Shown here piece by piece: positions 1 through 64,000 of a DNA stretch of 64,000 nucleotides. The notes beneath the pieces were generated by a model that saw nothing but the letters and a program-made list of their open reading frames with translations, was not told the DNA's origin and searched no databases. Made by a program: the position numbers and the translations under genes. Each line of letters begins with the position of its first letter. Position 1 is the first letter of the stretch. This DNA comes from a virus, in the IMG/VR virus record IMGVR_UViG_3300048856_000029, positions 24,846 to 88,845 of that record; one strand, written 5' to 3'.

Positions 1-98
1 TGCGTGACGACCCGTTGATCGAGCAGATCGCCGCGATCTTCAACATCACCTCCGAGCAGATCGACGAAGCCTGGCGTTACGCAGAATCTCTTGGATAG
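1..98 (+). CDS. 3' end of an upstream gene, possibly a tail-fibre assembly/chaperone-type protein (partial)
   Basis: Frame from base 3 reads RDDPLIEQIAAIFNITSEQIDEAWRYAESLG*, resembling C-termini of phage tail-associated proteins. Confidence 0.45.
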   Translation, partial: RDDPLIEQIAAIFNITSEQIDEAWRYAESLG

Positions 99-103
99 AG
101 TGA

Positions 104-123
104 TCAGTCAGTGTTTACTTATC
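104..123 (-). promoter_or_regulatory. Repeated palindromic operator copy
   Basis: TCAGTCAGTGTTTACTTATC upstream of phoH. Confidence 0.75.
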
Positions 124-172
124 GACATGCTTTCGCGTAAACTGGTGGCATTCGCATACATCGGAGTTCACC

Positions 173-1015
173 ATGTCCAAGGCACGCACGTCCCGGTCCA
201 CTAACAGACAGGAGCGCCGCGGCGCCTCTGTGAAGCCGAACAAACACGCCAACCTGATCCTGAAGGCCATTGAGGAAACTCAGCGGAAGGAGTCCGTCAA
301 GCCGCGCGTCGAGCCCGTTCGTCCGCTCACTGACGGCCAGCGCGCCTATGATGCCGCCTTCAAGTCCTCGGACATCGTCTTTGGTATCGGCTGCGCCGGC
401 ACGGGCAAGACCTGGTTTGCTGTCCAGCGCGCGGTGGAAGCCTATAAGGACGGCCTGGTCAGCAAGATCTATGTCACCCGTCCGAACGTCGACGTGGAGC
501 GTGGCTTCGGCTTCCTGCCCGGCGAGCTGGACGAGAAGTATGCGCCATATCTGGTGCCGCTCGAGGAGGCGTTCGTTGAGGCATTCGGATCCACGCATTA
601 CGAGCTGCTGGTCAAGAACAAGGTGATCGAGCCGGTGCCGCTGGCCTTCATGCGCGGCCGTACCCTCAAGAACGCCTGGGTGATCGCCGACGAAATGCAG
701 AACGCCACGAAGGCCGAGTTCCTGATGTTTCTCACCCGTATCGGCGAGGGCAGCAAATACATCATCAACGGCGACCCGGCCCAGGTCGATCGCGGCATTC
801 GCTCCGGTCTGATGGACGCTGTGGGCAGGGTAGGGCGGCTGGCCGAAGCAAAGGTTATCCGCTTCACGGAGGAAGACGTCGTTCGCCATGACCTCGTGCA
901 GAAAATCGTAAATCTTTATGCAGAGCCGACACGTCCTGACTATTCAGTAGCTGACGACGATGAAAATCGCGCAGGACTGGAAAGAGTGTTGAATGTCGCA
1001 GGCAGCAGAAATTGA
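173..1015 (+). CDS. phoH: PhoH-like ATPase
   Basis: Walker A GCAGTGKT, TRPNV, GFLPG, FMRGRTL, DEMQN and GDPAQ PhoH motifs. Confidence 0.95.
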   Translation: MSKARTSRSTNRQERRGASVKPNKHANLILKAIEETQRKESVKPRVEPVRPLTDGQRAYDAAFKSSDIVFGIGCAGTGKTWFAVQRAVEAYKDGLVSKIYVTRPNVDVERGFGFLPGELDEKYAPYLVPLEEAFVEAFGSTHYELLVKNKVIEPVPLAFMRGRTLKNAWVIADEMQNATKAEFLMFLTRIGEGSKYIINGDPAQVDRGIRSGLMDAVGRVGRLAEAKVIRFTEEDVVRHDLVQKIVNLYAEPTRPDYSVADDDENRAGLERVLNVAGSRN

Positions 1016-1703
1016 ACGTGTAGACCCGCTTGAGGGCGATATCATCGCCTTCAAGCACATTGACAAGAATCTCCTGAAGCTGGAGCCGGAGCTGTTCCGG
1101 ACCAAGTGGTTTGATTATCGCATGATCACGCCGCTCCAGGCGACTGAGCTTTATGTCGAGGCCTTCGCGGAGATCTATCGTTCCTATTTCGCGGTCGAGA
1201 TCGACCGGCGCAATGCGCAGCACGTTCGCATCCCGAACTTCCCGACCGTGATCGCTGGCGTCGAGGCCGGCGATCGCAAGCGCAAGACCTTCTTTGCTGG
1301 TTGCTGGCGCGGCCGGCAGGTCGCTGATGCGCTCGGAATGCCCTACAAGGAGTTCATTCATACGGTGATGGGCTATCGGCTTCGCTTCTGGAGCCAGAAC
1401 CATCTGCCGCGCCCGCATCAGCTCTACAACATGGCCGATGTCGAGCGGACGCAGGAGCGCTGGCAGGAGATGCAGGCCGGTCGTCTCTATCTCGCCGAGC
1501 ATCCAGCCTACATGCTGGAGAACTATGCCGGCATCCAGCACCAGGACGACTATCACGAATGGCTGTTCGCCCAGGCCTATCTGCGGTCCAACCCGTTCGA
1601 AGCGATGGCGACCTTCGTCAATGACAACATTCTGCCGCTCTCCAAGGTGGAAGCACGGGTCGATGAAGACCTGATCGACCGCGTTCATCGTCATCTCCAA
1701 TAG
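993..1703 (+). CDS. Conserved phage hypothetical protein upstream of the helicase
   Basis: 236-aa ORF overlapping phoH, host-like codon usage, in operon. Confidence 0.75.
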   Translation: MSQAAEIERVDPLEGDIIAFKHIDKNLLKLEPELFRTKWFDYRMITPLQATELYVEAFAEIYRSYFAVEIDRRNAQHVRIPNFPTVIAGVEAGDRKRKTFFAGCWRGRQVADALGMPYKEFIHTVMGYRLRFWSQNHLPRPHQLYNMADVERTQERWQEMQAGRLYLAEHPAYMLENYAGIQHQDDYHEWLFAQAYLRSNPFEAMATFVNDNILPLSKVEARVDEDLIDRVHRHLQ

Positions 1704-1730
1704 CACTCCGCTCATTTCTTGCTATTTAGT

Positions 1731-1750
1731 GATAAGTCAATACTGAATGA
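1731..1750 (+). promoter_or_regulatory. Repeated operator copy just downstream of a TATTTA -10-like box
   Basis: GATAAGTCAATACTGAATGA. Confidence 0.8.
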
Positions 1751-3126
1751 CTGAAGGAGTATCGATGTCATCGCAGGAAGCAGATGAAACTGCACACGAA
1801 AGCGGAGACGCAGGGCAGGCGCAGTGGGAATTTGATGAGGGCTTTCAGAAGAAGATCGCCTCGCTGTTCCTGCGCGACTCCCGGTTCGCGAACCAGACCA
1901 AAGATCTGATCCAGGGGGAGTATTTCGCCAACACCGCGCATGGCATGCTGGTCGACCTAGTGAAAGACCATGTCGCTGTTCACAAGGCCGTGCCGGACCC
2001 GCGCATCCTTACGCAGCTCGTGAAAGACGCCAAGGCAGCGAAACGTGTCCGCGAGGACATGATTCCCGACATCAAGAAGATGATCGTGGACTCGATGAAG
2101 GCCGATCTTTCGAACGCCAGCTATGTCGTCGGAAAGGTCACTGACTTCGCCAAGCACCAGGCTATGGAGCAGGCGATAATCAAGAGCGTCGAGCTTTTGC
2201 AGCGCGGCGATTTCAAGGGCATCGAGAAGCTGCAGAAAGCAGCGCTTGCGGTTGGCGCCGACTCCGACGACGAGGGTGACTACCACTACTTCCGCGAGAT
2301 CGACAATCGCACACAGCTCCGCGAGGACTGGAAGGCCGGCAAGATCATCAAGCGCGGCATCTCGACGGGCTATTCCGAGATCGACGCGCACCTCTATCAC
2401 AACGGCTGGGGTCGGCGCGAACTGTCGCTGATGATGGGCGCTGCGAAGGCCGGCAAGTCCCTTTCGCTCGGGGAGTTCACCAAGAACGCCTCGCTGCTTG
2501 GTTTTAACACCGCCTATCTGTCGTGCGAAGTCTCGAAGGACATCATCGCAGACCGTCTCGACGCGAACCTCGCCGACACGGCGATGCGTCTGCTGAAGGA
2601 CGATCCGCAGACGGTCAGGGCCAGGATCAAGGCGGCCGAGAAAGCTGCCGGCGAGTTGATCATCCGCGACTTCGCGTCTGGCACACTGAAGCCGTCGAAG
2701 GTCAAGCGCCTGCTCGAAAAATGGCGCGCAGAAGGCATCACCATCGATCTGCTGGCTATCGACTATGCCGACATCATGGCCGCGGAATATCGCTCCGACA
2801 ACACGATCGACAACCTGCGCTCGATCTACATCGATATCCGCGCAATCGCCTATGAAGAAGACCTGGCGCTGCTGTCTGCTACGCAGACGAACCGATCCGG
2901 CGCGGCTGCTCATACGGCCAAGATGACCGACGTCGCCGAAGACTTCAACAAGATCAGAACCGCTGACGTGGTCATCGGCATCAACGCTACCGATGCCGAA
3001 AAGCAGTCCGGCGAAGCGCGTCTGCATTGGGTCGCGTCGCGTAACTCGGAAGACGGCATGTCGCTGCGCATCCGACAGGACCGCGAGAAGCTCAAGTTCC
3101 TCACCAAAGTCCTCGGGAGGGTATGA
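1747..3126 (+). CDS. Replicative DNA helicase, DnaB/gp41-like (true start may be ATG 1765)
   Basis: STGYSEID, Walker A GAAKAGKS, SCEVS, IDYADIM, ATQTNR, SF4 helicase layout. Confidence 0.92.
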   Translation: MTEGVSMSSQEADETAHESGDAGQAQWEFDEGFQKKIASLFLRDSRFANQTKDLIQGEYFANTAHGMLVDLVKDHVAVHKAVPDPRILTQLVKDAKAAKRVREDMIPDIKKMIVDSMKADLSNASYVVGKVTDFAKHQAMEQAIIKSVELLQRGDFKGIEKLQKAALAVGADSDDEGDYHYFREIDNRTQLREDWKAGKIIKRGISTGYSEIDAHLYHNGWGRRELSLMMGAAKAGKSLSLGEFTKNASLLGFNTAYLSCEVSKDIIADRLDANLADTAMRLLKDDPQTVRARIKAAEKAAGELIIRDFASGTLKPSKVKRLLEKWRAEGITIDLLAIDYADIMAAEYRSDNTIDNLRSIYIDIRAIAYEEDLALLSATQTNRSGAAAHTAKMTDVAEDFNKIRTADVVIGINATDAEKQSGEARLHWVASRNSEDGMSLRIRQDREKLKFLTKVLGRV

Positions 3127-3127: not shown

Positions 3128-4249
3128 GTGTCAGCCGAGATCTTCCAGGAGATCAAGGAGAACCTCGATCTGGAGTTCTTCTTCGACCGCGAGAGCCTCG
3201 CCTTCAAGATGGGGCGCGGCGCTTCAGGTATGCAGATCAACGCCAAGGACTGCCCCGAATGTGGTGACGGTCGCTGGCGCGTCTATCTCAATGCCGACTC
3301 CGGTCTTGGCAATTGCTTCGTCTGCAACGCACCCTTCAACAAGCTCACCTTCATCAAGAAGACCTATGGGCACGAGAGCTGGAAGGATACGATCAAAGTC
3401 TGTCAGGAGGTCATGCGTGACCAGGGCTGGCGTCCGAAGCGCATCGCAACCGTCGCGGTCGATCCCGGCGAGGTGAGACTGCCACATTCGATCGAGCTGC
3501 CCACGCCTGAAGGTGAGAACCTGCAGTATCTCGAAACGCGCGGCGTCACTGGCGAATATGCCCAGTATTTCCGCTTTCGCTGGTGCGAGTTCGGATTCTG
3601 GCAGTTCACCGACGACGATGGCACCAAGAAGATCCAGAAGTTCGACAATCGGGTGATCATCCCGGTCTACGACCTCGACGGCACGTTGAAGACCTTCCAG
3701 GGGCGCGACCTGGCGCCGCCCTTGACCAAGGTGCAGAAGGAGCTCGGTTTCTTCGAGCGACAGAAATACCTCTTCCCGAAGGGTTTGCCTGGCACCGGCC
3801 GCTATCTCTACAACGGCCAGAACGTCATCAGGACGGATGAGATCGCGATGGGTGAGGGGGCTTTCGACGTTGCGGCCATCAAGATCGCCTTCGACGAGGA
3901 CGTCAACCTGCGCCGCGTCGTGCCCGTCGGCTCATTCGGCAAGCACCTGTCCTACGGATCACCGACCGGTGACGATCAGATAGGCCGGCTGCTGATCCTC
4001 AAGCGACAGGGCGTCAAGAAGCTGACGATCATGTGGGATGGCGAGGAGAAGGCATTGATCGCTGCCCTCGACGCAGCCAAGCGCGCGACATCGATCGGGC
4101 TCAAGGCCTACATTGCGCTGCTCCCGCCTGGCAAAGACCCGAACGAGGTGCCGGGCGAAGTCGTGCGCGACGCCTACTACAAGGCGACCCTCTGGACGCC
4201 GGCGATCGACGTTAAATGGAGATTGCGCAATCCCTACGCGGTGAAGTGA
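3128..4249 (+). CDS. DNA primase (Zn finger + Toprim)
   Basis: GTG at 3128 just after the helicase stop; CPEC...CFVC zinc finger, NRVIIPVYD, GEGAFD, MWDGE and KDPNE Toprim motifs. Confidence 0.9.
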   Translation: MSAEIFQEIKENLDLEFFFDRESLAFKMGRGASGMQINAKDCPECGDGRWRVYLNADSGLGNCFVCNAPFNKLTFIKKTYGHESWKDTIKVCQEVMRDQGWRPKRIATVAVDPGEVRLPHSIELPTPEGENLQYLETRGVTGEYAQYFRFRWCEFGFWQFTDDDGTKKIQKFDNRVIIPVYDLDGTLKTFQGRDLAPPLTKVQKELGFFERQKYLFPKGLPGTGRYLYNGQNVIRTDEIAMGEGAFDVAAIKIAFDEDVNLRRVVPVGSFGKHLSYGSPTGDDQIGRLLILKRQGVKKLTIMWDGEEKALIAALDAAKRATSIGLKAYIALLPPGKDPNEVPGEVVRDAYYKATLWTPAIDVKWRLRNPYAVK

Positions 4250-5779: not shown

Positions 5780-7315
5780 ATGAACGCTGCCGAAGCATTG
5801 GAGCGAATTAACGAAATCGCTAACGCAGGAGGTCGCAACGAAAAGCAAACGCTGCTCGCCGGCTTGCTGCAGGACGATCTCGGTCAATTCATCATCAAGT
5901 GGACCTACGATCCGTTCATCACCTACGGCGTTAAGGTCAAGAAGCTGCCGACCTATGCGCAGGAAGGGCCGGTCGAATTTACTGACAAGGTGGTCGAGCG
6001 CGTCCTGACGCAGCTTTCCACCCGCGAGCTGTCCGGTAACGCCGCGAAGGATGAAATCGAGATGTTGTTTGGCGGGCTGGACAATGCCGGCCGCGATCTG
6101 CTGTTTCGCATTCTGAGCAAGGATCTGAAGGCAGGTATCGCCAATTCGACGATCGAAGCCGTCATGCCGGGTTTCCTGCCGACCTTCGGCGTCATGCGCG
6201 CCCATCCTTACGAGGAAAAGCGGGTTATGCAGTTTCCGGTCCCGGTCGAGCCGAAGCTCGACGGAATGCGCTGCACCTTTATTGCGAAAGACGGGAAGGG
6301 GGCTTTCTTCACTCGCTCCGGCAAGGCGATTGAAAGCCTGCAATACCTGGCGAAGCCCTTGCTCGACGCCGCGTCGTTGATCGAGGCGCACGCAGCATCT
6401 GCCGAAGTCGACGACCACTATCGCAACCTCGCCAACTATCTGTTCGGCAGGGATGAAATGCCTGCCTTTGTGCTCGATACGGAGTCGATGAACGGGTTGT
6501 TTGCAAATTCCGGTGCCCTGCGCCGTAAGGGCGAGGAAGCCCGCGACGCCGAGCTGCACGCCTTCGACATTCTGCCCTATGATGGCTTTTTCGGCAGTGC
6601 CTCCTTCCTGGTGCCGTGGGAACAGCGCCGTGCTTTGCTTGAAACCTTCGTTAGCCAGGTCCGCGAGTTCACCCGGGCGCCGGTCTATGCGACCGAGATC
6701 TATGAGGCGAACTCGCACGAGGAGATCGAGGCCCTTTACGAGCGCATGATCAACCGAACGCTCGCCAACTATCTCGCCCGCGGGGACCAGGAGCGCGAGA
6801 AGGAGCTGGAGAAGATCACGGTGGACGACGCGACCGGCGAGCTGAAGTGCCTCGAGGGCGCGATGGTCAAAACCTATGACGGCGCCTACGAGAAGAAGAA
6901 ATCCTACACCTGGCTGAAGATCAAACCCGAGGACACAATCGACCTTTTCATCGTCGGCTTCTTCAACGGTGAGGAGAATAGCGAGAACGAAAACCGCATG
7001 GGCGGCGCGATCGTTGATCATAAAGGCGTCAACGTGCGCGTAGGCGGTGGCTGGAAAAGCAAGGAGCGCGAAGAACTCTGGGAAGACTGGTGCCACGACG
7101 CCAATATTCTGGGCATCGATCCGCATGTCGGCTTCAAACCTGGCTGGTCGACCTCGTTCGAACAGATCCAGCGTCACGCTCATCGCTTCAAGTTCCTCGG
7201 CCGCATGACCGAGTTGGAGTTCAACGAGGTTACGCCTGACGGCTCGCTGCGCCACCCGCGCCAGAAGCGCTTCCGCGATGACAAGGCCGGCGAGGTATTG
7301 CGGGAAGCCGCGTAA
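5780..7315 (+). CDS. ATP-dependent DNA ligase (T4 gp30-like)
   Basis: Motif I EPKLDGMRC, TRSGK, EGAMVK, WLKIKP, SLRHPR. Confidence 0.93.
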   Translation: MNAAEALERINEIANAGGRNEKQTLLAGLLQDDLGQFIIKWTYDPFITYGVKVKKLPTYAQEGPVEFTDKVVERVLTQLSTRELSGNAAKDEIEMLFGGLDNAGRDLLFRILSKDLKAGIANSTIEAVMPGFLPTFGVMRAHPYEEKRVMQFPVPVEPKLDGMRCTFIAKDGKGAFFTRSGKAIESLQYLAKPLLDAASLIEAHAASAEVDDHYRNLANYLFGRDEMPAFVLDTESMNGLFANSGALRRKGEEARDAELHAFDILPYDGFFGSASFLVPWEQRRALLETFVSQVREFTRAPVYATEIYEANSHEEIEALYERMINRTLANYLARGDQEREKELEKITVDDATGELKCLEGAMVKTYDGAYEKKKSYTWLKIKPEDTIDLFIVGFFNGEENSENENRMGGAIVDHKGVNVRVGGGWKSKEREELWEDWCHDANILGIDPHVGFKPGWSTSFEQIQRHAHRFKFLGRMTELEFNEVTPDGSLRHPRQKRFRDDKAGEVLREAA

Positions 7316-8021: not shown

Positions 8022-9131
8022 TCATCGACTTCGCCGCGCGATTTCATCAGTCAGATTGACCTTGCCTTCGCGGACAAGCCTGATCATCGCACGGTAATAT
8101 CCGCCCACATTCTTGATGGGATCCGCGCCAGGCGCCGGGGTTAGCTGCAGTTGCACCACATAGACGAGGACAGCCGCGGCCAGCAGCGGGCCAACCGCGC
8201 CGCGGGCCTCCTCCCAAGCCGACGGGCTGACGCCGAAGCCGCCCCGCATTCGCTCCACATTACCCACAAACTCCCGGTCGTTCCGCGCCGGTCCCACAAA
8301 CTCCATCGCATCCGGGCAGGATCTCGCCAAATCGCCGGCGTTCAAACCCGGGGCAGGCCGTTCCCGCCCCTCCATAACTCCTAAGCCGTTGTTACAAGAC
8401 TCATCAGGGGCATATTTGTTGTTGTCTTTGTGCCGGCAAGAATTGCCGCCACAGGCGGTATAATACAGTGCTTCGGCCTCTTCCCTGACTGCCTGCCACT
8501 CCTGTCGGAACGGATCGGCCAGTCCCGCGGTCGATCGCCGCGGTGTGACTCTGGCGAGCTCGATGGCGCGCTTCGTCAGTTCAGCAATATCTTGCTCGGG
8601 AAAATGCTCGGCGATAGCCCTGAGCGCTTCCTGGGCTGCCCTGCGATGAATCGTAAGCTCATCGAAGGCCAGCGATCGTTCGCGCTTCAAATCGTCCAGC
8701 GCCTGCTTGCGGGCGCGCAGCTCCTGGACCTGATTGAGAAGAGGGGAGAGGTCAAAGCCATAGGCCCGGATGATCTGCCCGTTTGCCGCTCTCTGCGCGA
8801 ACCTTTTGCCGTTCGGTGAATCCTTAGAGCAGACGACGCCCAAGGAAATCAGTTGACGAAGGCAGAAACGTAGAGTCCGGTCAGGAATTCCCGTGCTCTG
8901 CGAAAGGAATTCGTTCGAGGGCCAGACAAGGATTCGACCCTCGATCGGCTGATTTCCATAGACCCCAACAAGGTGATCAAGGATTTGTCGGCATTTGGAC
9001 GTCAAATTCAAGACCTCGCCGGCGAGCCGGGCAGCCTCGAATAGTTCTTTCTTTTCAGTGGTTAGCGGTTCGCTGTTATCCGGGACAATAGGATTCAGCG
9101 CACGCCAGCCGGTAGACTGCGCGTTCCTCAT
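8022..9131 (-). CDS. repC: RepC-type plasmid replication initiator (repABC/repC family)
   Basis: VWPSN, DSPNGKRF, AYGFDLSPLL N-terminal motifs and IKNVGGYYRAM C-terminal motif; ATG 9131 (alternative GTG 9170). Confidence 0.93.
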   Translation of the reverse strand: MRNAQSTGWRALNPIVPDNSEPLTTEKKELFEAARLAGEVLNLTSKCRQILDHLVGVYGNQPIEGRILVWPSNEFLSQSTGIPDRTLRFCLRQLISLGVVCSKDSPNGKRFAQRAANGQIIRAYGFDLSPLLNQVQELRARKQALDDLKRERSLAFDELTIHRRAAQEALRAIAEHFPEQDIAELTKRAIELARVTPRRSTAGLADPFRQEWQAVREEAEALYYTACGGNSCRHKDNNKYAPDESCNNGLGVMEGRERPAPGLNAGDLARSCPDAMEFVGPARNDREFVGNVERMRGGFGVSPSAWEEARGAVGPLLAAAVLVYVVQLQLTPAPGADPIKNVGGYYRAMIRLVREGKVNLTDEIARRSR

Positions 9132-9183: not shown

Positions 9184-9285
9184 TTGACAAATCACTGGTG
9201 ATTCGGGATAACCAAGGTGCGAAGATGGTTTAATCACCAGTCACTATTTAAAGGCCTCGGGACGCCAATCCTGGGGCCTTTTGCT
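9184..9285 (+). ncRNA. ctRNA (repC antisense RNA) with its promoter and terminator
   Basis: TTGACA at 9184, GATAAC 17 bp later, terminator stem AAAGGCCTCGGGA/TCCTGGGGCCTTT (9250-9281), antisense to the repC leader as in repABC plasmids. Confidence 0.75.
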
Positions 9286-9289
9286 TTGC

Positions 9290-9490
9290 CTACTTGTTTT
9301 CCTCCAAGAAGCGTTGGACTGCTGCCGCGATCACTTCGGAGCGATTGCGGTAGATGCCGGTCTTGACCACGGTGTCGAGCTGCTGCTTCAGATCCGCCTC
9401 AACCCAGATGTTGACTTGGCTCCTACCTTCAGCGGCCTTAGCCTGTCGGTAACGAATTGCTGGTGTGATGCGTTGGTTTTCGAGACCCAT
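9290..9490 (-). CDS. Ribbon-helix-helix (CopG/Arc-like) regulator
   Basis: QVNIWV...LKQQLD...YRNRSEVIAAAVQRFL; ATG 9490 (track start 9556). Confidence 0.75.
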   Translation of the reverse strand: MGLENQRITPAIRYRQAKAAEGRSQVNIWVEADLKQQLDTVVKTGIYRNRSEVIAAAVQRFLEENK

Positions 9491-9891: not shown

Positions 9892-10290
9892 ATGGTAACG
9901 AGCATTCACCCGTTCGCTGACAGCAAGGTGACAAAGTTTCTGCAGGAGCGCCTGGCGCAACTGGCTGATCGCAAGAGCGAGCGGCAGGTTGCAGCCGAAG
10001 CCGGCTTTAAGTCCCTCAATATCGTCAACATGATGAAAAAGGGTGACTCGAAGGTGCCGCTTGACCGCGTGGCTGGTTTGGCACGCGCCCTTGAAACCGA
10101 TCCGACGCATTTGTTCATCCTCGCGTTGGATCAGTATATGCCCTCGGACGCGCCCGAGATGTCGATTGCATCGACCATCCTCAGTAAGAATGAGAAGGCG
10201 ATCATCGACTACATACGCGAGGTCTCTGGTTCCTCCGATCCTGGTCTTAACGACCAGCGTAAGGAAGCCATCAAAAAGACCTTTGCCTGA
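9892..10290 (+). CDS. XRE/Cro-C1-type HTH regulator (candidate repressor)
   Basis: SERQVAAEAGFKSLNIVNMMKKGDSKVPLDRVAGLARAL HTH pattern. Confidence 0.8.
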   Translation: MVTSIHPFADSKVTKFLQERLAQLADRKSERQVAAEAGFKSLNIVNMMKKGDSKVPLDRVAGLARALETDPTHLFILALDQYMPSDAPEMSIASTILSKNEKAIIDYIREVSGSSDPGLNDQRKEAIKKTFA

Positions 10291-10662: not shown

Positions 10663-13200
10663 GTGAATAACGAACTCGTCATCCTGCGCGAAGCGATCAA
10701 GAAGCTCATTCCGATGATCGCCGGTCGCGGCCTCAAGGTCACGCAGATCGGCACGCAGGCTTACGTGATGCCTAACCAGAAGACGGGAATGCCGGAGCGG
10801 GTGAATATCCCCAACATTCCGGATAACGCATCCGACGAGTTCATTCAGGCGATCCAGGGCTTCATCGATCACGAGGTCGCTCACGTCCTGAAAACCGACT
10901 TTCTCTTCAAGGCAGGCGAGAAGTCCCCTCGCCTGCACAATCTTCACAACATTATCGAAGACACCTGGATCGAGCGCGAAATGGGGAACGACTTCCCCGG
11001 ATCGAAGGGAAACATCGAACGACTTTCGCGCTACTATATCCAGAACGTCACTTCGAAGGCGATCGCGTCTGCGGCCGACGAAATGGAAGAATTCCACTAC
11101 CTCTTCGTCGTCTTGATGCGCGCGCTCGCCGGACACGTTCCTTTCCAGGAATACATGGACGACAACAACTTCTGGGAAAGACCGCTGGTCAAGGCATTCC
11201 TGCAGCGCTTCCCGGATGAAATGAAGAAGCGCCTGCCGCGCTGCGCCTCGACGGCCGAGGCATTCGAGATCGCGCTCGAATGCGAGAAGATCCTCTATCC
11301 CCCACCACCCCCTGCCCCGCCGCAGCCGCAACCACAGCAGAACGAGGAACAGTCGGAGGAGCAGAAAAGCTCCGACAAGGACGAGGACGACAGCGATAAC
11401 TCCGAGAGCGATGAGAAGGGCGGAGATCCTTCTGACAGCGACGAAGAACAGGACGGTGAAGGCGAGCAGTCCGAGTCCGGTGAAGGCGAGGATGACCAGG
11501 ATCACTCCGACGAAGAACAGGCCGGTGACGGTGAAGGCGACGGTGAGCGCGAGCACACCAAAGACAGCGATGACGCTTCAGGCGGAGAGGAAGGAGAAAA
11601 TGAAGAAGGCGACGAAGCCGAGGACGATGCTGACGCCCAGTCTGGCGGTGATGGCTCTGACGACGGCGATGAGCCGCAGAATGACGCCGGCGAGGAAGAC
11701 GAAAGCGGAAAGGGCGGCAAGTCCAAAAAAGACAAGTCCGATGCTGATGAAGACGCTGGCTCCGGTGACGCTGACCCATCTGAAGACGGCGACGAATCCG
11801 GCGAAGACGACGGCGCCGATCAGAATGCCGATGATCCGGCTGATCCCGCTGATGAAGGCGAGCCGGACGATGGTGCAGACGAGAAAGGCGGCTCTGACGC
11901 TGCTGGCGACGACGATCAAGGATCGGAAGAGGATAAGGCCGGTCAGGATCAGGGTGAAGGCGATGATGACGCCGAGGGCGAAGATGCCGACGGGGATTCT
12001 GATGGTAACGAGGGCGATCGCGATGGCGAGAGCGATGATGCCTCGGGTGATGACGCCGATGAGGAACAGGCCGGTAAGACGAACCTCGCGGTAGAGGTCG
12101 ACAACGACGACGGAAACTCCGGCTCGCCGGTCAAGGAAGACGAAGACGGCCTCGAACTGGCAGGTGTCGGCTATGACGGCACGAATCCTTTCCAGGAGAT
12201 GCGCGACGATGACCTGAAGAACAAGGATCTGTCGTCCTCGATCGCGATCATCATCCAGCGCCAGGCGATCCAGGCGCTGCACGGCGCCGACTACTCCGTC
12301 TACACGCGCGAGCTGGACGTCATTCAGCCGCTGCCCGTGCCCGCCGAGTTCAAGAACGACAAGGTGCAGGAGATGGAAGAGGAGACGCGGGCGATGACCG
12401 GCGTCATGCAGAAGGACATCGAGCGCATGATGGCCGCGCAGAGCCGCGTCTTCAATGTCGCGGGTCAGCGCTCCGGTCGCCTCAATGGGCCGAGCCTGCA
12501 CCGCCTGGTCGCCGGCGACGCGCGTGTGTTTGGTCGCCGCGAGGAGATCCGCGCAAAAGACACCGCGGTCATGCTCCTGAACGACTGCTCCGGCTCCATG
12601 CGTAACCGCAAGATCTCGACCGCTATGGCATCGTCCTACGCGCTGTCGTCGACCCTGGAGCGTGTCAACATTCCGCACGAGGTCATGGGCTTCACGACGG
12701 GCGGCCACTGGCACACTGGACCGATCACGTCGGCAAAGGCCGAGGAGCTCGCGCGTCAGGCGATGGAAGAAATGCGCAAGACCGGCGTTCGTTTCTCTCG
12801 CGTCTCGCCGATCTACATGCCGATCTTCAAGGAGTTCCACGAGCGCTTGAACTCCGAAGTGAAGCGCCGCTTCGCCTATATGCGCAACGTCCAGCCGAAT
12901 ATGGGCAACAATATCGACGGCGAGTCCCTGGAATATGCAGCGATGCGCCTCGCCAAGCGCAAGGAAAAGCGCAAGGTGATCATCGTTCTGTCTGACGGCT
13001 TCCCTGCCGGCGCCCATAACGACGACGAGCACCTGAAATACATGACCGAGCGCCTGACCAACATGGGCTTCGACCTCGTCGGCATCGGCATCGAGTCCGC
13101 AGCCGTCGAGCGCTTCTACGAAAACAATCTGGTCCTCAACTCGGTCGCCGAGTTGCCGGGTGCCGTGATGGGCAAACTTCGCTCCATCCTGTCGAAATAG
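10663..13200 (+). CDS. CobT-like vWA protein with N-terminal HExxH and a very long acidic linker
   Basis: FIDHEVAHV and NIIEDTWIE; D/E tract about 11340-12170; MIDAS NDCSGS, NIDGE, VLSDG, GIGI. Confidence 0.88.
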   Translation: MNNELVILREAIKKLIPMIAGRGLKVTQIGTQAYVMPNQKTGMPERVNIPNIPDNASDEFIQAIQGFIDHEVAHVLKTDFLFKAGEKSPRLHNLHNIIEDTWIEREMGNDFPGSKGNIERLSRYYIQNVTSKAIASAADEMEEFHYLFVVLMRALAGHVPFQEYMDDNNFWERPLVKAFLQRFPDEMKKRLPRCASTAEAFEIALECEKILYPPPPPAPPQPQPQQNEEQSEEQKSSDKDEDDSDNSESDEKGGDPSDSDEEQDGEGEQSESGEGEDDQDHSDEEQAGDGEGDGEREHTKDSDDASGGEEGENEEGDEAEDDADAQSGGDGSDDGDEPQNDAGEEDESGKGGKSKKDKSDADEDAGSGDADPSEDGDESGEDDGADQNADDPADPADEGEPDDGADEKGGSDAAGDDDQGSEEDKAGQDQGEGDDDAEGEDADGDSDGNEGDRDGESDDASGDDADEEQAGKTNLAVEVDNDDGNSGSPVKEDEDGLELAGVGYDGTNPFQEMRDDDLKNKDLSSSIAIIIQRQAIQALHGADYSVYTRELDVIQPLPVPAEFKNDKVQEMEEETRAMTGVMQKDIERMMAAQSRVFNVAGQRSGRLNGPSLHRLVAGDARVFGRREEIRAKDTAVMLLNDCSGSMRNRKISTAMASSYALSSTLERVNIPHEVMGFTTGGHWHTGPITSAKAEELARQAMEEMRKTGVRFSRVSPIYMPIFKEFHERLNSEVKRRFAYMRNVQPNMGNNIDGESLEYAAMRLAKRKEKRKVIIVLSDGFPAGAHNDDEHLKYMTERLTNMGFDLVGIGIESAAVERFYENNLVLNSVAELPGAVMGKLRSILSK

Positions 13201-13245: not shown

Positions 13246-13265
13246 ATTAAGTAAATACTGATTGA
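13246..13265 (+). promoter_or_regulatory. Repeated operator copy overlapping a TATTAA box
   Basis: ATTAAGTAAATACTGATTGA. Confidence 0.75.
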
Positions 13266-13309
13266 TCGCAAGGACAGAACAAGCGACAATCACAATCACG
13301 GAGAGACAA

Positions 13310-14581
13310 GTGAACGAGACAAGCGTTGAGCAAACCGCCGTCGCCGAAGAAGACGGCATGATCATCTGCAAAATCGACGGTGGGAAGTGCCACTCGATCA
13401 GGCTCTACCTCAAGGAAAATCATCCCGACTGGACGATGGAGCGCTACAAGGAAACCTATCCTGGCGCACCGATCCTGTCGGCTCACGGCCGCGACATGGC
13501 GCTGAAGGCGAAAGAGCGCAAGGAACAGGCTGAGAAGATGCGCAGCGGCGTGTCGACCGGCGCGGTGCACGCCTTCGCCTTCAAAGACGGCTACATGCAC
13601 GAGATCTTCGACCTCGGCGCCAATCCGGCCGCTATGTCGTCGACCGGCAACCCGATCGCAATCAAGGTTCTGCAGGACTGCCACGATGAGGCGCGCGCCT
13701 ATCTCGCTCCTGTTGATCCCGACTACGTCTTCAACATCGACCTGATCAAAAAGGTCTGCCTGGGCTTCGAGCTCGGCATGAACGTCTATCTCTGGGGTTA
13801 TCACGGCACCGGCAAGACGACCGTCCTTGAACAGTGCGCTGCCCGCACCGGCCGCGCCTTCCTTCGCGTCCAGCACACCGGCAATACCGAAGAGGCGCAC
13901 ATTCTCGGCCAGTATGTCGTCAAGACCGACATGGTCGAGGCGCAGGAAATCGGCCCCGACGGCAAGATCCATGCGGTCCTGAAGCCGCAGACCGTCACCG
14001 AGTTCCAGTATGGGCCGCTGGCGATGGCGATGAAATACGGCATGATCTACTGCGCCGACGAATACGACTTCGCCATGCCGAGCGTGATCGCGCTCTATCA
14101 GCCAGTCCTCGAAGGCAAGCCCTTGGTCATCAAGGATGCGCCCATTCATCAGCGCGTCATTCATCCGCATCCCGACTTCCGTTTCGTTGCGACCGGGAAC
14201 ACCAACGGCGTCGGCGACGAAACGGGCCTCTATCAAGGCACGATGATCCAGAACGCCGCGTCCTATTCGCGTTTCCACATCACCGAGGAAGTCAAATACA
14301 TGCCGGCCGAGCAGGAAGTCATGGTGCTGCGCTCCAAGACCGGCTTGGTCAAGAAAGATGCCGAGAAGTTCGTCAAGATCGCCAACGCGATCCGCGAGGA
14401 GTTCGCCAAGGGCTCGCTGTCGATGACGATCTCGCCGCGCGAGCTGATCACCGCAGCCAAGCTGTCGATCGTCTTCGCAAACAATCCCCAGATCGGCTTC
14501 AAGCTCGCTTTCGTCAACCGCTGCTCCCGCGTCGATCAAAAGGCGTGCTCGGACCTGATGCAGAGGCACTTCGGCTCATGA
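13310..14581 (+). CDS. CobS-like MoxR AAA+ ATPase
   Basis: WGYHGTGKT, ADEYD, LYQPVLEG, HPDFRFVATGNT, ISPREL; GTG 13310 after GGAGAG. Confidence 0.9.
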   Translation: MNETSVEQTAVAEEDGMIICKIDGGKCHSIRLYLKENHPDWTMERYKETYPGAPILSAHGRDMALKAKERKEQAEKMRSGVSTGAVHAFAFKDGYMHEIFDLGANPAAMSSTGNPIAIKVLQDCHDEARAYLAPVDPDYVFNIDLIKKVCLGFELGMNVYLWGYHGTGKTTVLEQCAARTGRAFLRVQHTGNTEEAHILGQYVVKTDMVEAQEIGPDGKIHAVLKPQTVTEFQYGPLAMAMKYGMIYCADEYDFAMPSVIALYQPVLEGKPLVIKDAPIHQRVIHPHPDFRFVATGNTNGVGDETGLYQGTMIQNAASYSRFHITEEVKYMPAEQEVMVLRSKTGLVKKDAEKFVKIANAIREEFAKGSLSMTISPRELITAAKLSIVFANNPQIGFKLAFVNRCSRVDQKACSDLMQRHFGS

Positions 14582-15204
14582 TCAGCGAGAAGGACTATGA
14601 GACCCTGGTGAAGCGCTTCTCCGGCGCTTTCTATAGGAAGATGCTCCGTTCCGGCGTGACCGCGTTCACGCTCGAGGACATTCAGCAGGAACACTGGCTC
14701 GGTTTCTGCCGCGCCAGGAACAGCTACAGCGCAGAGACCGGCGTGCCCTTCCAGGCCTATCTGATCAAGGGGCTGGAGCAGTTGCAGTCGGAGATGCGAC
14801 GCAAGGTGTCGAAGCGCTTCCATGAGCGAAATCACTTGTCGCTCGACGCGCCGATTGGGGATGAGGACAGCAAAATGCAGCTCCATGAAACGCTTGCCGG
14901 CGATGAAGAGGAACTCGGCTCATCCCTCGATCGCGACCAGCAGATCGAGCGCCTTTGCGCAAATTTGTCGGACCGGGCGCGGACCTACGTCCAGCTTATT
15001 TACCGGCAGCCGGCTGAACTGCTTGAGCAGACCAAGGCTATCCGAGCCCGCGCCGAACACGCCAGTAACATCGGTATCGCTCACTTTGCTCCGAGCGGTG
15101 TCTCCTCCTCCCTCGTCTTCAAACTGATGGGCGCGCCTCGCCAAGAGCGCACCCGCATCAATGCCGAGATCGAAAAAGCTCTCGGTCAACTCGCTAGAGG
15201 CTGA
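14578..15204 (+). CDS. Sigma-70-like factor (regions 2-3 recognisable)
   Basis: EDIQQEHWLGFCRARNSYSAETGVPFQAY resembles region 2; SLDAPIGDED resembles region 3.2. Confidence 0.65.
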   Translation: MISEKDYETLVKRFSGAFYRKMLRSGVTAFTLEDIQQEHWLGFCRARNSYSAETGVPFQAYLIKGLEQLQSEMRRKVSKRFHERNHLSLDAPIGDEDSKMQLHETLAGDEEELGSSLDRDQQIERLCANLSDRARTYVQLIYRQPAELLEQTKAIRARAEHASNIGIAHFAPSGVSSSLVFKLMGAPRQERTRINAEIEKALGQLARG

Positions 15205-46613: not shown

Positions 46614-47175
46614 AGCAGGCTTCGACACTGAAACGACCGGCCTCGAGGTCGGCGATCACCGCATCATCGAAATCTATATAGGTCTGTGGCGCGATGGCGT
46701 GCTGCTGCGCAAGTTCCATACCTTCATCGATCCGAGGCGGTCGATCACGGCCGAAGCCCAGGCGGTCCACAAGATCACTGCCGCGGATCTCGTCGGCAAG
46801 CCGGAATGGAAAGAGGTCGCGCCGACCATCCAGGCCTATCTCGCCAAGGCTGACCGGCATGTGGCTCATAACGCGCCGTTCGATATCGGCTTCCTGGAAT
46901 ACGAGTTGAAGCGGGTCGGGCTGCAGTTCCCCAAGCGCCCTGTCATCGACACCGGCACGTTCGTATGGGCAACGCCTGACGGCAAGAAGCCGACGCTCCA
47001 GGAGCTCTGCTTTGCATGTGGTGTCGACTACGCCGTCACCTCGTCTATGGGCACAGGCGCACACGCCGCGGATTACGACGTGGACGTCATGATGCAGAGC
47101 CTGGCTGCCGCACGTCGCTTCGGCTTCGTCGCTGAACCGGAGCAGGCACATGAGCAAATCCAACAGGCAGCGTGA
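46606..47175 (+). CDS. DEDDh 3'-5' exonuclease (DnaQ/epsilon-like)
   Basis: FDTETTG, AHNAPFDIGFL, HAADYD. Confidence 0.92.
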   Translation: MIEAGFDTETTGLEVGDHRIIEIYIGLWRDGVLLRKFHTFIDPRRSITAEAQAVHKITAADLVGKPEWKEVAPTIQAYLAKADRHVAHNAPFDIGFLEYELKRVGLQFPKRPVIDTGTFVWATPDGKKPTLQELCFACGVDYAVTSSMGTGAHAADYDVDVMMQSLAAARRFGFVAEPEQAHEQIQQAA

Positions 47176-54700: not shown

Positions 54701-54978
54701 CCAAGAAAATATCACCGTCGGAAATCGAGTTCGACATCAAGAAGGGCAAGTCGGCCTGGGATCACAAAACGCCGGTCGTCTCCATCCTGATCGCCACGAA
54801 GGACGAAGACCACGATGACTCCGACAACCTCGGCCGTCACAACGTCTCCGACCTGCCCAAGATCATCGGCACTGAGCATTCGGAATGCTCCTTCGAGGTC
54901 CGCGACGGCGACCTTGACGACATCAAGGCGCAGATGATCGCGGCCGGCTTCACCTACAAGAAAATGAGGAATTGGTAA
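54697..54978 (+). CDS. Small hypothetical protein
   Basis: ATGA overlap upstream, TAATG downstream. Confidence 0.65.
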   Translation: MTKKISPSEIEFDIKKGKSAWDHKTPVVSILIATKDEDHDDSDNLGRHNVSDLPKIIGTEHSECSFEVRDGDLDDIKAQMIAAGFTYKKMRNW

Positions 54979-56428
54979 TGAGCAATATCTCGGGCAAGAC
55001 GCTCGTAGCGTGGGGCTTGCAGCCAGGCGCATGGTTCAAGGAAGCGCTCCCGCTCGCGCGCCAGCTCCGCGAGGACGGCAAGACGGACAAGGAGATCATC
55101 CAGGCGCTGTTCCCGATGCAGGCAACCAAGGCTGTCGAGGAAGGCGTGCCGCTGCGCACCAACAACATTCCGTTCGGCCAGTTCATCGAGCCGGAAGGGG
55201 AAGACGAGAAGGCCAACGTCGCCTCGGTTCTCGCTCACATGGATGCGCTGATGCGCGTCCCGACGATCGAGCGCGGCGCAGTCATGCCGGACGCTTGCCC
55301 GTCAGGCTCGGCAATGGGCACGATCCCGGTCGGTGGTGTCGTCGCCGCGAAGAACGCGATCCACCCGGGCTTCCATTCCGCGGATATCTGCTGCTCGATG
55401 GCGATCTCCGTCTTCAAGCGCGACGTGCCAGTCGACTACGTCCTGGATATCGCGATGAAGGCCACGCATTTCGGCGTCGGCAAACGAACGGCATCGGAAG
55501 CGCGCCAGCAGAAGGAGCTGGTGCAGTTGGTGAATGTCTTTGAGCAGAACCCCTTCCTCAAGGGTCTCGAGGACTATGCCATCCATCACTTCATGACCCA
55601 GGGCGACGGCAACCACTTCTTCTATGTCGGCGAATTGGAATCGACCGGGCAGTTGGCGATCGTCACGCATCATGGCTCTCGCGGACTGGGCGGCCAGCTC
55701 TACAAGCGCGGCAAGGCAGCGGCTGAACGCCATACCCGAATTGTCGCCGGCCGGGTGCCGTTGCACAACGCCTGGATCGAGGCCGACACCCAGGTCGGTC
55801 AGGATTACTGGCAGGCACTGCAGGCGATCCGCCTGTGGACGAAGATGAACCATTTCGCCATTCACAACCTGGTCGCCAAGCGCCTCGGCAATCAGATCAT
55901 CGGGCAGTTCTGGAACGAACATAACTTCGTCTTCCGGCGCTCCGACGGCCTTTTCTACCACGCCAAGGGCGCCACGCCGAATTTCAAGGGCTTCTCGAAG
56001 GACGACCAGGGCCTCACCCTGATCCCGATGAACATGAGCCAGCCGATCCTCATCACGGAGCATGTCAACAACGAGGATGCTCTGGGTTTCGCACCGCACG
56101 GCGCCGGCCGCAATCTCTCTCTCGCACCGGACACATCAAGCGCCTGATGGAAGAATTCGGCGATACGCGCGGTCTGGGGCCGAACGCTATCAAGGCGATC
56201 ATGGAGCGCGAAACCAAGGGGCTCGACGTCCGGTTCTACACCGGCGATCCGGACGTGTCGGAGCTGCCGAGCGCCTACAAGAATTCAGCCCAGGTTCAGG
56301 CACAGATCGAGAAGTTCGGGCTCGCCAAGATCTCCGATCGCGTTCTACCGCGCGGGTCGATCATGGCCGGCGAAATGAAGTGGCACAAGGGCAAGAAGCC
56401 CAAGGCTGACGCCGCTCAGACAGCCTGA
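54978..56428 (+). pseudogene. rtcB: RtcB-family RNA ligase interrupted by a 2-nt (TC) insertion near 56114-56123
   Basis: MPDAC, SADICCSM, GDGNHFF, HHGSRG, NEHN, HGAGRNLS; C-terminal SELPSAYK lies in the +2 frame (56147-56428). Confidence 0.85.
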
Positions 56429-62539: not shown

Positions 62540-62623
62540 TCGCTCAGTGCCGTGCGGTTTATGGTTAACCAACCATTAAAACCGCACGCGTCGTCGTCAA
62601 ATGAAATGTCCGATAATGTTGCA

Positions 62624-63136
62624 TTATCGGACGTTTTGAAAGGGCGCGGTCAGAGCTTCTATCGACGCTCTCGCCCGACCCAGGCACGCCTCAAGTCCCT
62701 CAACCACACTCGCCTGCGGGCGTCGTTCGCCGAAGTCCAAAGCGGCATTGCTTCCGGGCGGCGTGATCACCGCATAGTGGTCATTCGGGCTGTAGATCGA
62801 GATCCGGTAGCCTTTAAACTGCTCGACATAACTGGGCACTGGCGCGATCTCCTCGTCTCGCCGACGCAGCATAGCATCCCAATACTCCTCGACAACTCTG
62901 GCTGCGTCAGACGCCGTGGGCATCCAACCATTGTTCGGCATGATCCAGGTGCGACACCCCGTCGGATACTGCCCGGCCCAGCGCCACTGCCCTGCCTTCA
63001 AGGTTTGATCGTCAAGGTAGATCCGGCCAATATTCACCTCGCCGTCGAAACCGACATAGTCTTCCGGCACGTTGCCGTGCCTGTCACGGTCGTCGGGCCA
63101 GGTGCGGGACCAGCGGTATTTCTTCTGCCACACCAT
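62624..63136 (-). CDS. Hypothetical protein of the rhizobial prophage-associated type
   Basis: YRWSRTW...DYVGFDGEVNIGRIY...WRWAG. Confidence 0.65.
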   Translation of the reverse strand: MVWQKKYRWSRTWPDDRDRHGNVPEDYVGFDGEVNIGRIYLDDQTLKAGQWRWAGQYPTGCRTWIMPNNGWMPTASDAARVVEEYWDAMLRRRDEEIAPVPSYVEQFKGYRISIYSPNDHYAVITPPGSNAALDFGERRPQASVVEGLEACLGRARASIEALTAPFQNVR

Positions 63137-63261
63137 CGAACGTTAGGGTTCTCTTAACTACGAATTGCTAATGTGATCACGGCAGCAATCTCCTCCCCTC
63201 GTATGCTGCTGTCGTTTTAGGAACTTGGCCCAGGCTCTCGCCCTGGGCCTTTTTCCTTTGG

Positions 63262-63546
63262 TCAGCGCGGAAGCTGGCCGAGGATCCATCCATTCCCGCT
63301 TTTGTTGCCGCACGCCAGGCATCGGAGCCGTGGCGCTAGCGAAAGAACCGGCGTCTCCTGGCCCCATTTCCGCGCCAACTCGTAGCGCAGCAGCCAGGCC
63401 TCACGCTCACATTTCGAGCAGTGCGCACCAAGGGCGTGCCACTCTGGAATGTCGGCAAATGTCACCCGTGGCTCCGTAAGCGGACCCAGATAGATGATCT
63501 CGTCACGGCCTGGTCGGCCGAGGGTTATGCCGCGGCGATGCCTCAT
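63262..63546 (-). CDS. Small Zn-ribbon protein, LexA-box preceded
   Basis: CSKC and CLAC; start placed at ATG 63546. Confidence 0.7.
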   Translation of the reverse strand: MRHRRGITLGRPGRDEIIYLGPLTEPRVTFADIPEWHALGAHCSKCEREAWLLRYELARKWGQETPVLSLAPRLRCLACGNKSGNGWILGQLPR

Positions 63547-63561
63547 GTTCTCTATTTGTTC
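63547..63561. promoter_or_regulatory. Alphaproteobacterial LexA (SOS) box abutting the start codon
   Basis: GTTC-tctattt-GTTC. Confidence 0.7.
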
Positions 63562-63735
63562 ACATGCTGCTATAGAGTCAATCCTCTTGGTGCCATTCGC
63601 GTTCCACGACGAAATATGCGATAGAGGTCGAGTCGAGAGCGAAGCAGCAGGCGTCGTGCCAGCCGACGTCAACTCACGGAGATGAGCATCGTGAGGTGAG
63701 GCAGCAGGCTCTGCTCTCGAACCGAGGAGGTGAGA

Positions 63736-63828
63736 ATGATGTGGCTAATACCCATCAGGATCACGCTGCGGATACAGAAAACCCGGACGAGCTGGTCAGT
63801 GACCGTCCGGGTTAATCTGTTATCCTAA
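63736..63828 (+). CDS. 30-aa small protein (not in ORF track)
   Basis: GAGGAGGT RBS; MMWLIPIRITLRIQKTRTSWSVTVRVNLLS*; strong hairpin downstream (63838-63869). Confidence 0.55.
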   Translation: MMWLIPIRITLRIQKTRTSWSVTVRVNLLS

Positions 63829-64000
63829 GCAGTAAACGAGGGTCAGGCGGTTCGCGCTGCCTGGCTCTCACTCCGGAAAGATACAGCGATCGACTCCGGA
63901 TTTCAAGGTCCGTCGCCTGCCTGCCGCATCCCTGAACGTCGCATTCATGGCCGTCGCCGCGATTCTTTTTCCATCGCCGGTGGCCACTACGAGCGATACC

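Follow-up and report, generated by a model that had tools for sequence, protein, structure and literature searches.

What kind of element carries the DNA-metabolism genes of a large tailed phage side by side with the replication initiator of a rhizobial plasmid, and in which form would such an element persist in its host? This question is raised by the 64,000-nucleotide stretch analyzed here (hereafter the window), which covers positions 24846–88845 of one record of 115,723 bp, the uncultivated virus IMGVR_UViG_3300048856_000029, and represents its DNA-metabolism and replicon half. A preliminary description, based on the window alone, had proposed an alphaproteobacterial lineage of the enterobacterial SSU5/pHCM2-like phage-plasmids that acquired a host-adapted RepC replicon. 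We conclude, with a probability of about 0.82, that the window represents the replication half of an uncultivated siphophage with a complete genome of ~115.7 kb, and that this phage belongs to the RHEph10/pLM21S1 group of RepC phage-plasmids of the Hyphomicrobiales and most likely also lives as a plasmid. Judged by sequence comparison, the group is related, distantly but collinearly, to the SSU5/pHCM2 elements of enterobacteria and the Acinetobacter “AB” elements.

The whole record is 99% complete according to CheckV, has a G+C content of 58.9% and carries nearly all of its genes on one strand. Contig bases 1–126 recur exactly at 115585–115710, and with this 126-bp direct overlap of its ends the contig behaves as a circular or terminally redundant assembly; among its relatives, B1VFA carries repeats of 3.6 kb. 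The final 13 bases (115711–115723) repeat a sequence 40 nt upstream as its reverse complement, with the joint at a common TCGAC; they look like an assembly tip or fold-back and, by interrupting the end repeat, are probably the reason why the record is classed as linear in IMG/VR. Taken at face value, this label would suit an integrated prophage or chromosomal island that was cut out by assembly, a reading that we consider extremely improbable. A profile search of the whole 115.7-kb record, in which control genomes were matched, found no tyrosine (PF00589) or serine (PF00239) recombinase, so that the absence of an integrase, already noted for the window, extends to the complete element, which consequently is not expected to integrate. 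Furthermore, no host genes flank the element, no att-flanked chromosomal surroundings were seen, the region around the contig junction is collinear with RHEph10, and the contig ends overlap as described.

Gene content was assessed on 150 crude open reading frame (ORF) calls (GC3-based) for the whole record, 89 of which lie within the window; two antisense calls (14536-15216 and 3403-3660) were dropped on homology, and a sigma-factor gene was added likewise. Outside the window, the same contig encodes the small and large terminase, portal, capsid, tape measure and tail genes, i.e., the packaging and structural genes that were to be sought beyond the window, as well as a DEAD-box helicase, a small ParA (214 aa), two ParB_N-domain proteins and a second ligase, with the ParA and ParB genes ~65 kb or more away from repC. 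A full tailed-phage packaging and structural gene set is thus found on one replicon together with initiator and partition genes, in agreement with the gene criteria of Pfeifer and Rocha for phage-plasmids.

The closest backbones were those of RHEph10 (NC_034248), the phages RHph_N1_15 and Y2_11, and plasmid p5 of Pararhizobium qamdonense, with genomes of ~115–117 kb and DnaE proteins 76–78% identical to that of the window. RHEph10, whose genome measures 115 kb, matches 95 of the 150 ORFs and is collinear end to end, including across the contig junction. All these relatives share with the window an RHH-RepC cassette (named for a ribbon-helix-helix, RHH, protein) between ligase and cobT, ParA/ParB, a sigma factor, a DnaE fused to a uracil-DNA glycosylase (UDG) domain, rIIA/rIIB and a tRNA-Cys. 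In contrast, nucleotide identity to this group is only ~78% and extends over roughly one fourth of a 24-kb test segment; RHEph10 encodes class I NrdAB, glutaredoxin and ThyA where the window has a class II ribonucleotide reductase (RNR) and a ThyX-like synthase; and p5, despite its similar backbone, has a RepC merely 38% identical to that of the window. Class I NrdAB is also present in pLM21S1, B1VFA and SSU5, whereas a single large RNR is common to the window and the Shinella and R. bangladeshense plasmids (~77% nucleotide identity of the RNR gene). A second set of relatives, pLM21S1 (Sinorhizobium sp. LM21), B1VFA and V1VFA-S, shares the overall architecture, the RHH gene with an antisense hairpin and the lack of an integrase, and the RepC proteins of pLM21S1 and B1VFA are 59–62% identical to that of the window; DnaE of these two is, however, only 64–65% identical and belongs to another backbone clade, and pLM21S1 carries nadV-nadM and a class I RNR (PMC4447125), unlike the class II enzyme of the window. 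At the DNA level, best matches were RHEph10-like Rhizobium phages and circular plasmids of 109–119 kb (~77–79% identity over at most 28% of a 24-kb probe). Circular relatives of this size occur in isolates of Sinorhizobium, Shinella, Pararhizobium, Rhizobium and Methylobacterium, and relatives known as virions include RHEph10, the RHph phages and B1VFA (PMC12509600).

The proposed relationship to SSU5 could be upheld for the backbone, but not as membership of the SSU5 supergroup proper. For SSU5, 36 of the 150 ORFs match at E<1e-5 and in the same order (16 of the 89 ORFs in the window), so that proteins are clearly shared, with identities of 57.5% for the terminase, 51% for the portal, 50% for the capsid, 40% for SbcC and 37% for DnaE. 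The collinear siphophage backbone comprises terminase, portal, capsid, tail, DnaB, ligase, CobT/CobS, DnaE, exonuclease, RecA, SbcCD, DEAD helicase and ParB-like genes. A rough weighted gene repertoire relatedness (wGRR; one-way tblastn on crude ORF calls) amounted to 0.35 with RHEph10 and 0.10 with SSU5. In the survey of Pfeifer 2021, the SSU5 supergroup consists of SSU5_pHCM2, pKpn, pSLy3 and pMT1, wGRR values between communities of the SSU5 supercommunity range from 0.23 to 0.59, and the mean between the AB group and the SSU5 supergroup is 0.08 (PMC7969092). The value of ~0.10 lies outside the former range and close to the latter mean, which argues against membership. RHEph10 was placed with the Acinetobacter AB community in the same survey, and AB, pCAV and the SSU5 supergroup were described as evolutionarily related (PMC7969092). 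SSU5 also differs in its enterobacterial hosts and its replicon: it has no RepC, its ligase-cobT interval contains just small ORFs and a tRNA, and its initiator SSU5_069 (SSU5 record 59428-60492; typed IncFIB in the SSU5 supergroup, PMC7969092), located between the recombinase region and sbcD, has no matching ORF on the element studied here. The wider lineage is visible from the portal protein, which is ~50% identical in 966 plasmid records, mainly from Klebsiella, Escherichia, Acinetobacter, Enterobacter, Yersinia and Salmonella, and also matches ~110-kb phages of Pseudomonas, Xanthomonas and Stenotrophomonas, ~113-kb contigs of Ancylobacter, Magnetospirillum and Massilia, and contigs of 25–71 kb from Chelativorans, a Methylocystis metagenome-assembled genome and Oxalobacter.

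The stretch between ligase and cobT, in which the group differs from SSU5, contains the following features (window coordinates; HTH, helix-turn-helix; VWA, von Willebrand factor A):

5780..7315, plus strand: ATP-dependent DNA ligase, left border of the replicon slot (Pfam DNA_ligase_A_M E=6e-12; 29% identity to the SSU5 ligase, 64% to RHEph10)
8022..9131, minus strand: RepC replication initiator, between ligase and cobT (Pfam RP-C E=1e-37, RP-C_C E=5e-12)
8370..8445: A+T-richer stretch within repC, candidate oriV
9219..9292, plus strand: predicted counter-transcribed RNA (ctRNA) of ~70 nt, antisense to the repC leader (candidate promoter TTGACA-N17-GATAAC at ~9184-9212; hairpin 9250-9281, then UUUUGCUUUGCC)
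9290..9487, minus strand: small RHH protein of ~66 aa, upstream of repC, where repABC operons have repB
9892..10290, plus strand: HTH regulator, divergent from RHH-repC (HTH_3 E=0.023, below the Pfam cut-off; phrog_8 “transcriptional regulator” E=2.5e-4)
10663..13200, plus strand: CobT-like VWA protein, right border of the replicon slot (Pfam CobT_C E=7e-36; homologue of SSU5_049)

The initiator is of the rhizobial type, as had been proposed: it combines the RP-C and RP-C_C domains and belongs to the RepC family of Hyphomicrobiales plasmids. Its start is probably the ATG at 9131 (the longest ORF reaches to 9170), as the N-terminus aligns with relatives from MRNAQS onwards. Instead of repA and repB upstream in one operon, a 66-aa RHH gene precedes repC, so that the replicon corresponds to the repC family, i.e., an RP-C-domain RepC without linked repAB, of the pRmeGR4a type (compared by description only). 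The RHH assignment relies on Pfam matches below threshold (E about 0.01–0.04); the homologues are annotated as RHH in pLM21S1 and pRlX1, and the small ORF with its ...W...F(K/R)NRSE... motif is kept in all 10 cassette-bearing relatives. The regulator at 9892-10290, previously called XRE, has only weak HTH matches of its own, yet its homologues are annotated as HTH regulators in related plasmids, and the Magnetospirillum homologue matches HTH_3 at E=2e-4. The origin of p42d is located within or close to an A+T-rich part of repC, and RepC works in cis (PMC3155836). By analogy, the stretch at 8370-8445 may serve as oriV, since two overlapping 60-nt windows (8370-8444) show a GC content of 42–45% versus 59% for the repC gene. 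The same ligase-HTH/cobT slot is occupied by RepC in RHEph10, RHph_N1_15, B1VFA and pLM21S1 as well as in elements of Shinella, Pararhizobium, Methylobacterium, Ancylobacter and Chelativorans.

The spacer between the RHH gene and repC (130–200 nt) is conserved and can be aligned with the sequence between repB and repC in both pTi and a Microvirga repABC plasmid, i.e., with a region in which ctRNAs are known for repABC and repC-family plasmids (PMC10194956). A GC-rich hairpin of 13–14 bp, ~30 nt beyond the GATAAC and followed by UUUUGCUUUGCC, is located on the strand opposite repC (fold z = -3.3). In an alignment of 14 loci, 14 pairs are kept, with compensatory double changes in 10 of the 14. 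When the helix is read on the antisense strand, 33 cells of the alignment are G-U and 12 unpaired, versus 6 and 39 on the sense strand, and the U-run is located on the antisense side; this strand bias argues that the helix is conserved as part of an antisense RNA. The repC leader itself shows a long-range pairing of GGCAAAGC with GCUUUGCC, which brackets the antisense target, and small hairpins just before the repC start (fold z = -4.3). The ctRNA of the preliminary description therefore gained comparative support across the 14 loci, but none from curated models: the Rfam models ctRNA_p42d (RF00489) and S-element (RF00490) gave no match at E<=10 in 7000-10800, nor in the loci of pLM21S1, N1_15 or the M. 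oryzae phage-plasmid. In the pTi control, ctRNA_p42d scored 44.9 bits at the very place aligned with the window hairpin, and the S-element 41 bits just downstream. Four weak Rfam matches in 7000-10800 (suhB-like, P37 and two others; E<=10) were taken as chance, and a simple sigma-70 promoter/terminator consensus scan of 8900-10700 passed over both the promoter and the terminator proposed for the ctRNA. From the alignment, the predicted RNA is equivalent in position and structure to ctRNA_p42d, but falls outside the curated Rfam family.

The resemblance to the repC-family replicons and to the inc-alpha region between repB and repC of the repABC plasmids p42d and pTi extends over the RP-C + RP-C_C RepC, the predicted antisense RNA gene upstream of repC with its GC hairpin and U-run, and a conserved leader in which a stem-loop covers the Shine-Dalgarno sequence; the region aligns column for column with its counterparts in pTi and Microvirga (PMC10194956, PMC3155836). 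Differences are the RHH gene in place of repA and repB, a RepC only 25–32% identical to that of pTi and the lack of Rfam matches.

The history of this cassette differs from that of the phage backbone. The window RepC is 59–62% identical to the RepCs of RHEph10, N1_15, pLM21S1 and B1VFA and equally close to those of solo RHH-repC cassettes on conjugative Rhizobium plasmids of 257–318 kb, but merely 36–40% identical to the RepCs of the Pararhizobium, Shinella and Methylobacterium elements. A backbone tree of SSB (single-strand DNA-binding protein), exonuclease, RecA, SbcD and DnaE (2,548 columns; SSU5 as outgroup) gave (window,(Pararhizobium,(RHEph10,N1_15))) with support of 100/99, and placed pLM21S1, B1VFA and Shinella in the other clade. 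In the RepC tree, the window groups with RHEph10, N1_15, pLM21S1, B1VFA and the solo cassettes of the 257–318-kb plasmids, with Pararhizobium far off. In approximately unbiased (AU) tests, the RepC-style grouping was rejected by the backbone data (p=2.7e-6), while the RepC data rejected the backbone clade (p=1.5e-44), the Pararhizobium-RHEph10-N1_15 clade (p=2.5e-4) and the monophyly of phage RepCs against large-plasmid RepCs (p=1.7e-5); these p-values are optimistic, as the groups were chosen with the identity tables already at hand. The effect size is nevertheless large, with the Pararhizobium element being 78% identical to the window in DnaE versus 38% in RepC. The conflict between the two trees points to exchange of the cassette, including exchange with large rhizobial plasmids.

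Further support came from Methylobacterium, where the RepCs of phage-plasmids cluster with RepCs from plasmids of Methylobacteriaceae. Strain M. oryzae H33R-06 carries a 116.8-kb element and a 457-kb plasmid whose RepCs are 81% identical, but whose antisense hairpins differ in the upper stem and loop, as if a cassette had been transferred recently and its incompatibility determinant had diverged thereafter. The slot is filled by other maintenance genes in relatives that belong to other bacterial orders: in a 112.8-kb contig of Magnetospirillum molischianum an RPA-family initiator (PF10134, E=2e-74) with a tyrosine recombinase (L042:7415-9302), and in a 113-kb contig of Massilia sp. a tyrosine recombinase without recognisable initiator (L043:8501-9565). 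Taken together, these comparisons support repeated exchange of the RepC cassette as far as can be read from sequence, and they agree with the notion of an acquired, host-adapted replicon, as the phage-plasmid RepCs group with those of ordinary plasmids of the same bacterial family and the slot differs in Magnetospirillum and Massilia. One could go further and regard the ligase-HTH/cobT stretch as a dedicated “lifestyle slot” for whole-cassette swaps in a widespread ~110-kb siphophage lineage, filled by RHH-ctRNA-RepC of several incompatibility types in Hyphomicrobiales, an RPA-type initiator plus recombinase in Magnetospirillum and a tyrosine recombinase in Massilia, with RepC cassettes moving both ways between phages and large conjugative rhizobial plasmids. 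We put this forward tentatively, at slightly less than even odds; if true, such phages would be vehicles creating and spreading new plasmid incompatibility types in multipartite rhizobial genomes.

How might the two sets of genes work together? In lytic growth, gene content suggests that the element would use its own replisome and nucleotide supply, i.e., DnaB, primase, DnaE-UDG, SSB, ligase, RecA, SbcCD, RNR, thymidylate synthase and dUTPase, next to which a sigma factor and rIIA/rIIB are carried. In lysogeny, it would not integrate but could persist as a low-copy plasmid whose replication is started by RepC, an initiator that in this family works in cis on an origin within the repC gene. The ~70-nt ctRNA would pair with the repC leader, throttle RepC synthesis and set incompatibility, whereas the RHH protein probably represses the rhh-repC promoter and would thereby replace the RepA/RepB autoregulation of repABC operons. 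Segregation could be provided by the small ParA and the ParB-domain proteins encoded elsewhere on the element. The RHH-ctRNA-RepC cassette, held in its fixed ligase-HTH/cobT slot, would have been swapped over evolution among phages and with large rhizobial plasmids.

Alternatively, the element could be a strictly virulent or carrier-state phage, in which RepC, ParA and ParB serve lytic or transient replication and never stable plasmid lysogeny. Such a phage would fit the isolation of RHEph10, the RHph phages and B1VFA as plaque formers (PMC12509600) and the full replisome of the element, which has no need of RepC. It would also fit the lack of a clear CI-type repressor: besides the weak HTH match, a Pfam and PHROGs search of the minus-strand ORFs at 60.8–63.7 kb and 34.3–35.2 kb yielded just a PadR-like protein and one unnamed PHROG, so that no lysogeny repressor can be named. 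We nevertheless regard this alternative as unlikely, because close backbone relatives are circular plasmids in cultured isolates of five genera, and because a copy-control apparatus (ctRNA, RHH) and partition genes conserved under selection make little sense for a purely lytic phage. Somewhat less likely still is the opposite case, a domesticated or defective phage-derived plasmid that replicates by RepC and no longer makes infective particles. Here, pLM21S1 could not be induced by mitomycin C (PMC4447125, PMC5537653) and an SSU5-like Klebsiella plasmid is reported not to behave like an active phage (PMC8969562); in the element itself, however, all comparable structural and packaging genes are full length and 50–87% identical to those of the infective RHEph10, the contig counts as a complete virus in IMG/VR and CheckV, and no broken genes were seen in the window.

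A phage that also lives as a plasmid therefore remains the preferred reading, against which several points have to be set. Besides the linear label, the sub-threshold RHH matches, the silent Rfam models and consensus scan and the optimistic AU p-values mentioned above, the isolation of RHEph10-type phages as plaque formers and the non-inducibility of pLM21S1 (PMC4447125) point to different states, the relatives being known either as plasmids or as virions. The contig moreover stems from a soil metagenome, so that its host, probably Rhizobiaceae-like, its plasmid state and its particles are inferred from sequence. Among public sequencing runs, the sequence occurs in one soil-metagenome DNA run, probably its source, with no RNA run listed.

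Both the lineage and its RepC replicon have been described before. pLM21S1 was reported to be a plasmid-like prophage that has a RepC replicon but no integrase (Dziewit 2015; PMC4447125, PMC5537653), 83 genes were found to be common to pLM21S1 and RHEph10 and the pair was called archetypes of a new group (Dziewit 2015; PMC4447125), and parA, parB and repC were reported in B1VFA and V1VFA-S (Gunathilake 2025; PMC12509600). The element is consequently known in kind since 2014–2015, and the contig adds one complete, fairly divergent uncultivated genome to the SSU5-type phage-plasmid architecture already known from soil Alphaproteobacteria, which is confirmed here. Three points were not found in the cited papers, all of them incremental, namely the comparative evidence for the ctRNA, the incongruence of RepC and backbone, and the alternative contents of the slot. 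They indicate that the region controlling the replicon in these phages shares ancestry with the antisense-RNA control region of repABC plasmids, though the Rfam models miss it. The separate history of the RepC cassette and the other maintenance genes found in its slot extend the published rule that phage genes are conserved and plasmid genes variable in phage-plasmids (Pfeifer 2021; PMC7969092) without adding a new principle. As compatibility among the many repABC and repC replicons of rhizobia shapes their genome architecture, a cassette-trading phage is relevant to plasmid speciation and to conflict between phages and plasmids.

In the remainder of the window, checked like the genes above with Pfam and PHROGs, all genes of the preliminary description were recovered in the order given there, from phoH to rIIAB. 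Beyond that list, the RNR proved to be of class II and not class I and the thymidylate synthase ThyX-like rather than ThyA, and a sigma factor had gone unlisted. The genes are (window coordinates, except for the second ligase):

173..1015, plus strand: PhoH-like ATPase (Pfam PhoH E=8e-65; 64% identity to RHEph10 gp030)
1747..3126, plus strand: DnaB-like replicative helicase (Pfam DnaB_C E=2e-12; 37% to SSU5_039, 79% to RHEph10)
~3128..4249, plus strand: DNA primase (72.5% over 371 aa to the RHEph10 primase; weak Pfam DNAG_N match)
4341-4886: WGR protein
13262..14581, plus strand: CobS/MoxR-like AAA+ ATPase (Pfam AAA_5, CbbQ_C; 35% to SSU5_050)
14578..15204, plus strand: phage sigma factor (Pfam Sigma70_r2 25.3 bits, cut-off 24; phrog_351 E=3e-8)
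15724..19077, plus strand: DnaE-type polymerase with C-terminal UDG domain (Pfam PHP, DNA_pol3_alpha, finger, HHH_6, UDG)
19971..21020, plus strand: gp32-like single-strand DNA-binding protein (Pfam gp32 E=8e-11)
21185..22144, plus strand: 5'-3' exonuclease (Pfam 5_3_exonuc_N, 5_3_exonuc)
22827..23990, plus strand: RecA-like recombinase (Pfam RecA E=1e-38; 43% to SSU5_060)
26634-27728 and 28136-30082, plus strand: SbcD and SbcC, with a small ORF between them (Pfam Metallophos; AAA_23, SMC_N; 33%/40% to SSU5_073/SSU5_075)
31743..34031, plus strand: class II (B12-dependent type) RNR (Pfam RNR-II_ins_dom E=5e-10, Ribonuc_red_lgC)
34841-35152, minus strand: PadR-like protein
35482..35568, plus strand: tRNA-Cys(GCA) (ARAGORN; Rfam tRNA 63.7 bits; RHEph10 tRNA-Cys at the matching place)
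36297..37253, plus strand: thymidylate synthase, ThyX-like (phrog_85 E=1e-78; Pfam Thy1 E=2e-4)
38588-39058 and 39058-39684, plus strand: dUTPase and AAA_28 kinase-like protein (Pfam)
39782-42172 and 42169-43734, plus strand: rIIA and rIIB (phrog_2979 E=4e-125, phrog_2886 E=2e-116; 39%/44% to RHEph10 rIIA/rIIB)
46606..47175, plus strand: RNase T/DnaQ-like 3'-5' exonuclease (Pfam RNase_T E=3e-28; 38% to SSU5_086)
54972..56147, plus strand: RtcB-like RNA ligase (Pfam RtcB E=6e-17; 71% to RHEph10 gp146)
contig 90075-91109: second, shorter ATP-dependent DNA ligase, additional to the 511-aa window ligase (Pfam DNA_ligase_A_M E=9e-28, DNA_ligase_A_C E=9e-23)

For the primase, the longest ORF spans 2993-4249, and homology begins only near 3128, past the first start codon of this ORF. 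The sigma-factor gene matches in position the sigma factors of RHEph10 and of the Shinella and Pararhizobium elements. In the homology search, DnaE aligned with the SSU5 polymerase at 37% identity in 1186 columns, and its identity to RHEph10 was 75%; the C-terminal domain of the uracil-DNA-glycosylase superfamily comprises residues 966-1101, the fusion is common to RHEph10, and the SSU5 polymerase aligns over its full length. Rfam, applied to the whole window at gathering score, recovered the tRNA alone. An adjacent trio of genes at 51421-52919 comprises one with similarity to a T7 gp0.7-like kinase (phrog_15752 E=9e-13), one for an HD_4 (RelA/SpoT-type) hydrolase and one for a MazG-like pyrophosphohydrolase (phrog_4856), and may counter host stress responses or defence.

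Finally, we observed a recurrent palindrome, AGTCA-N4-TGACT, of which 37 copies with at most one mismatch are present in the 115.7-kb genome, 34 of them intergenic and mostly 8–94 nt upstream of plus-strand gene starts. The window contains 14 copies versus 0.03 expected by chance, e.g., at:

4268-4281, 10360-10373, 13216-13229, 26172-26185, 31693-31706, 38318-38331 and 57449-57462: palindrome AGTCA-N4-TGACT

The motif is likewise frequent in RHEph10 (17 copies) and in the Methylobacterium pAMS5a element (6 copies within 16 kb), and is rare in SSU5 (4 copies); it could represent the operator of a global repressor or the promoter of the phage sigma factor.

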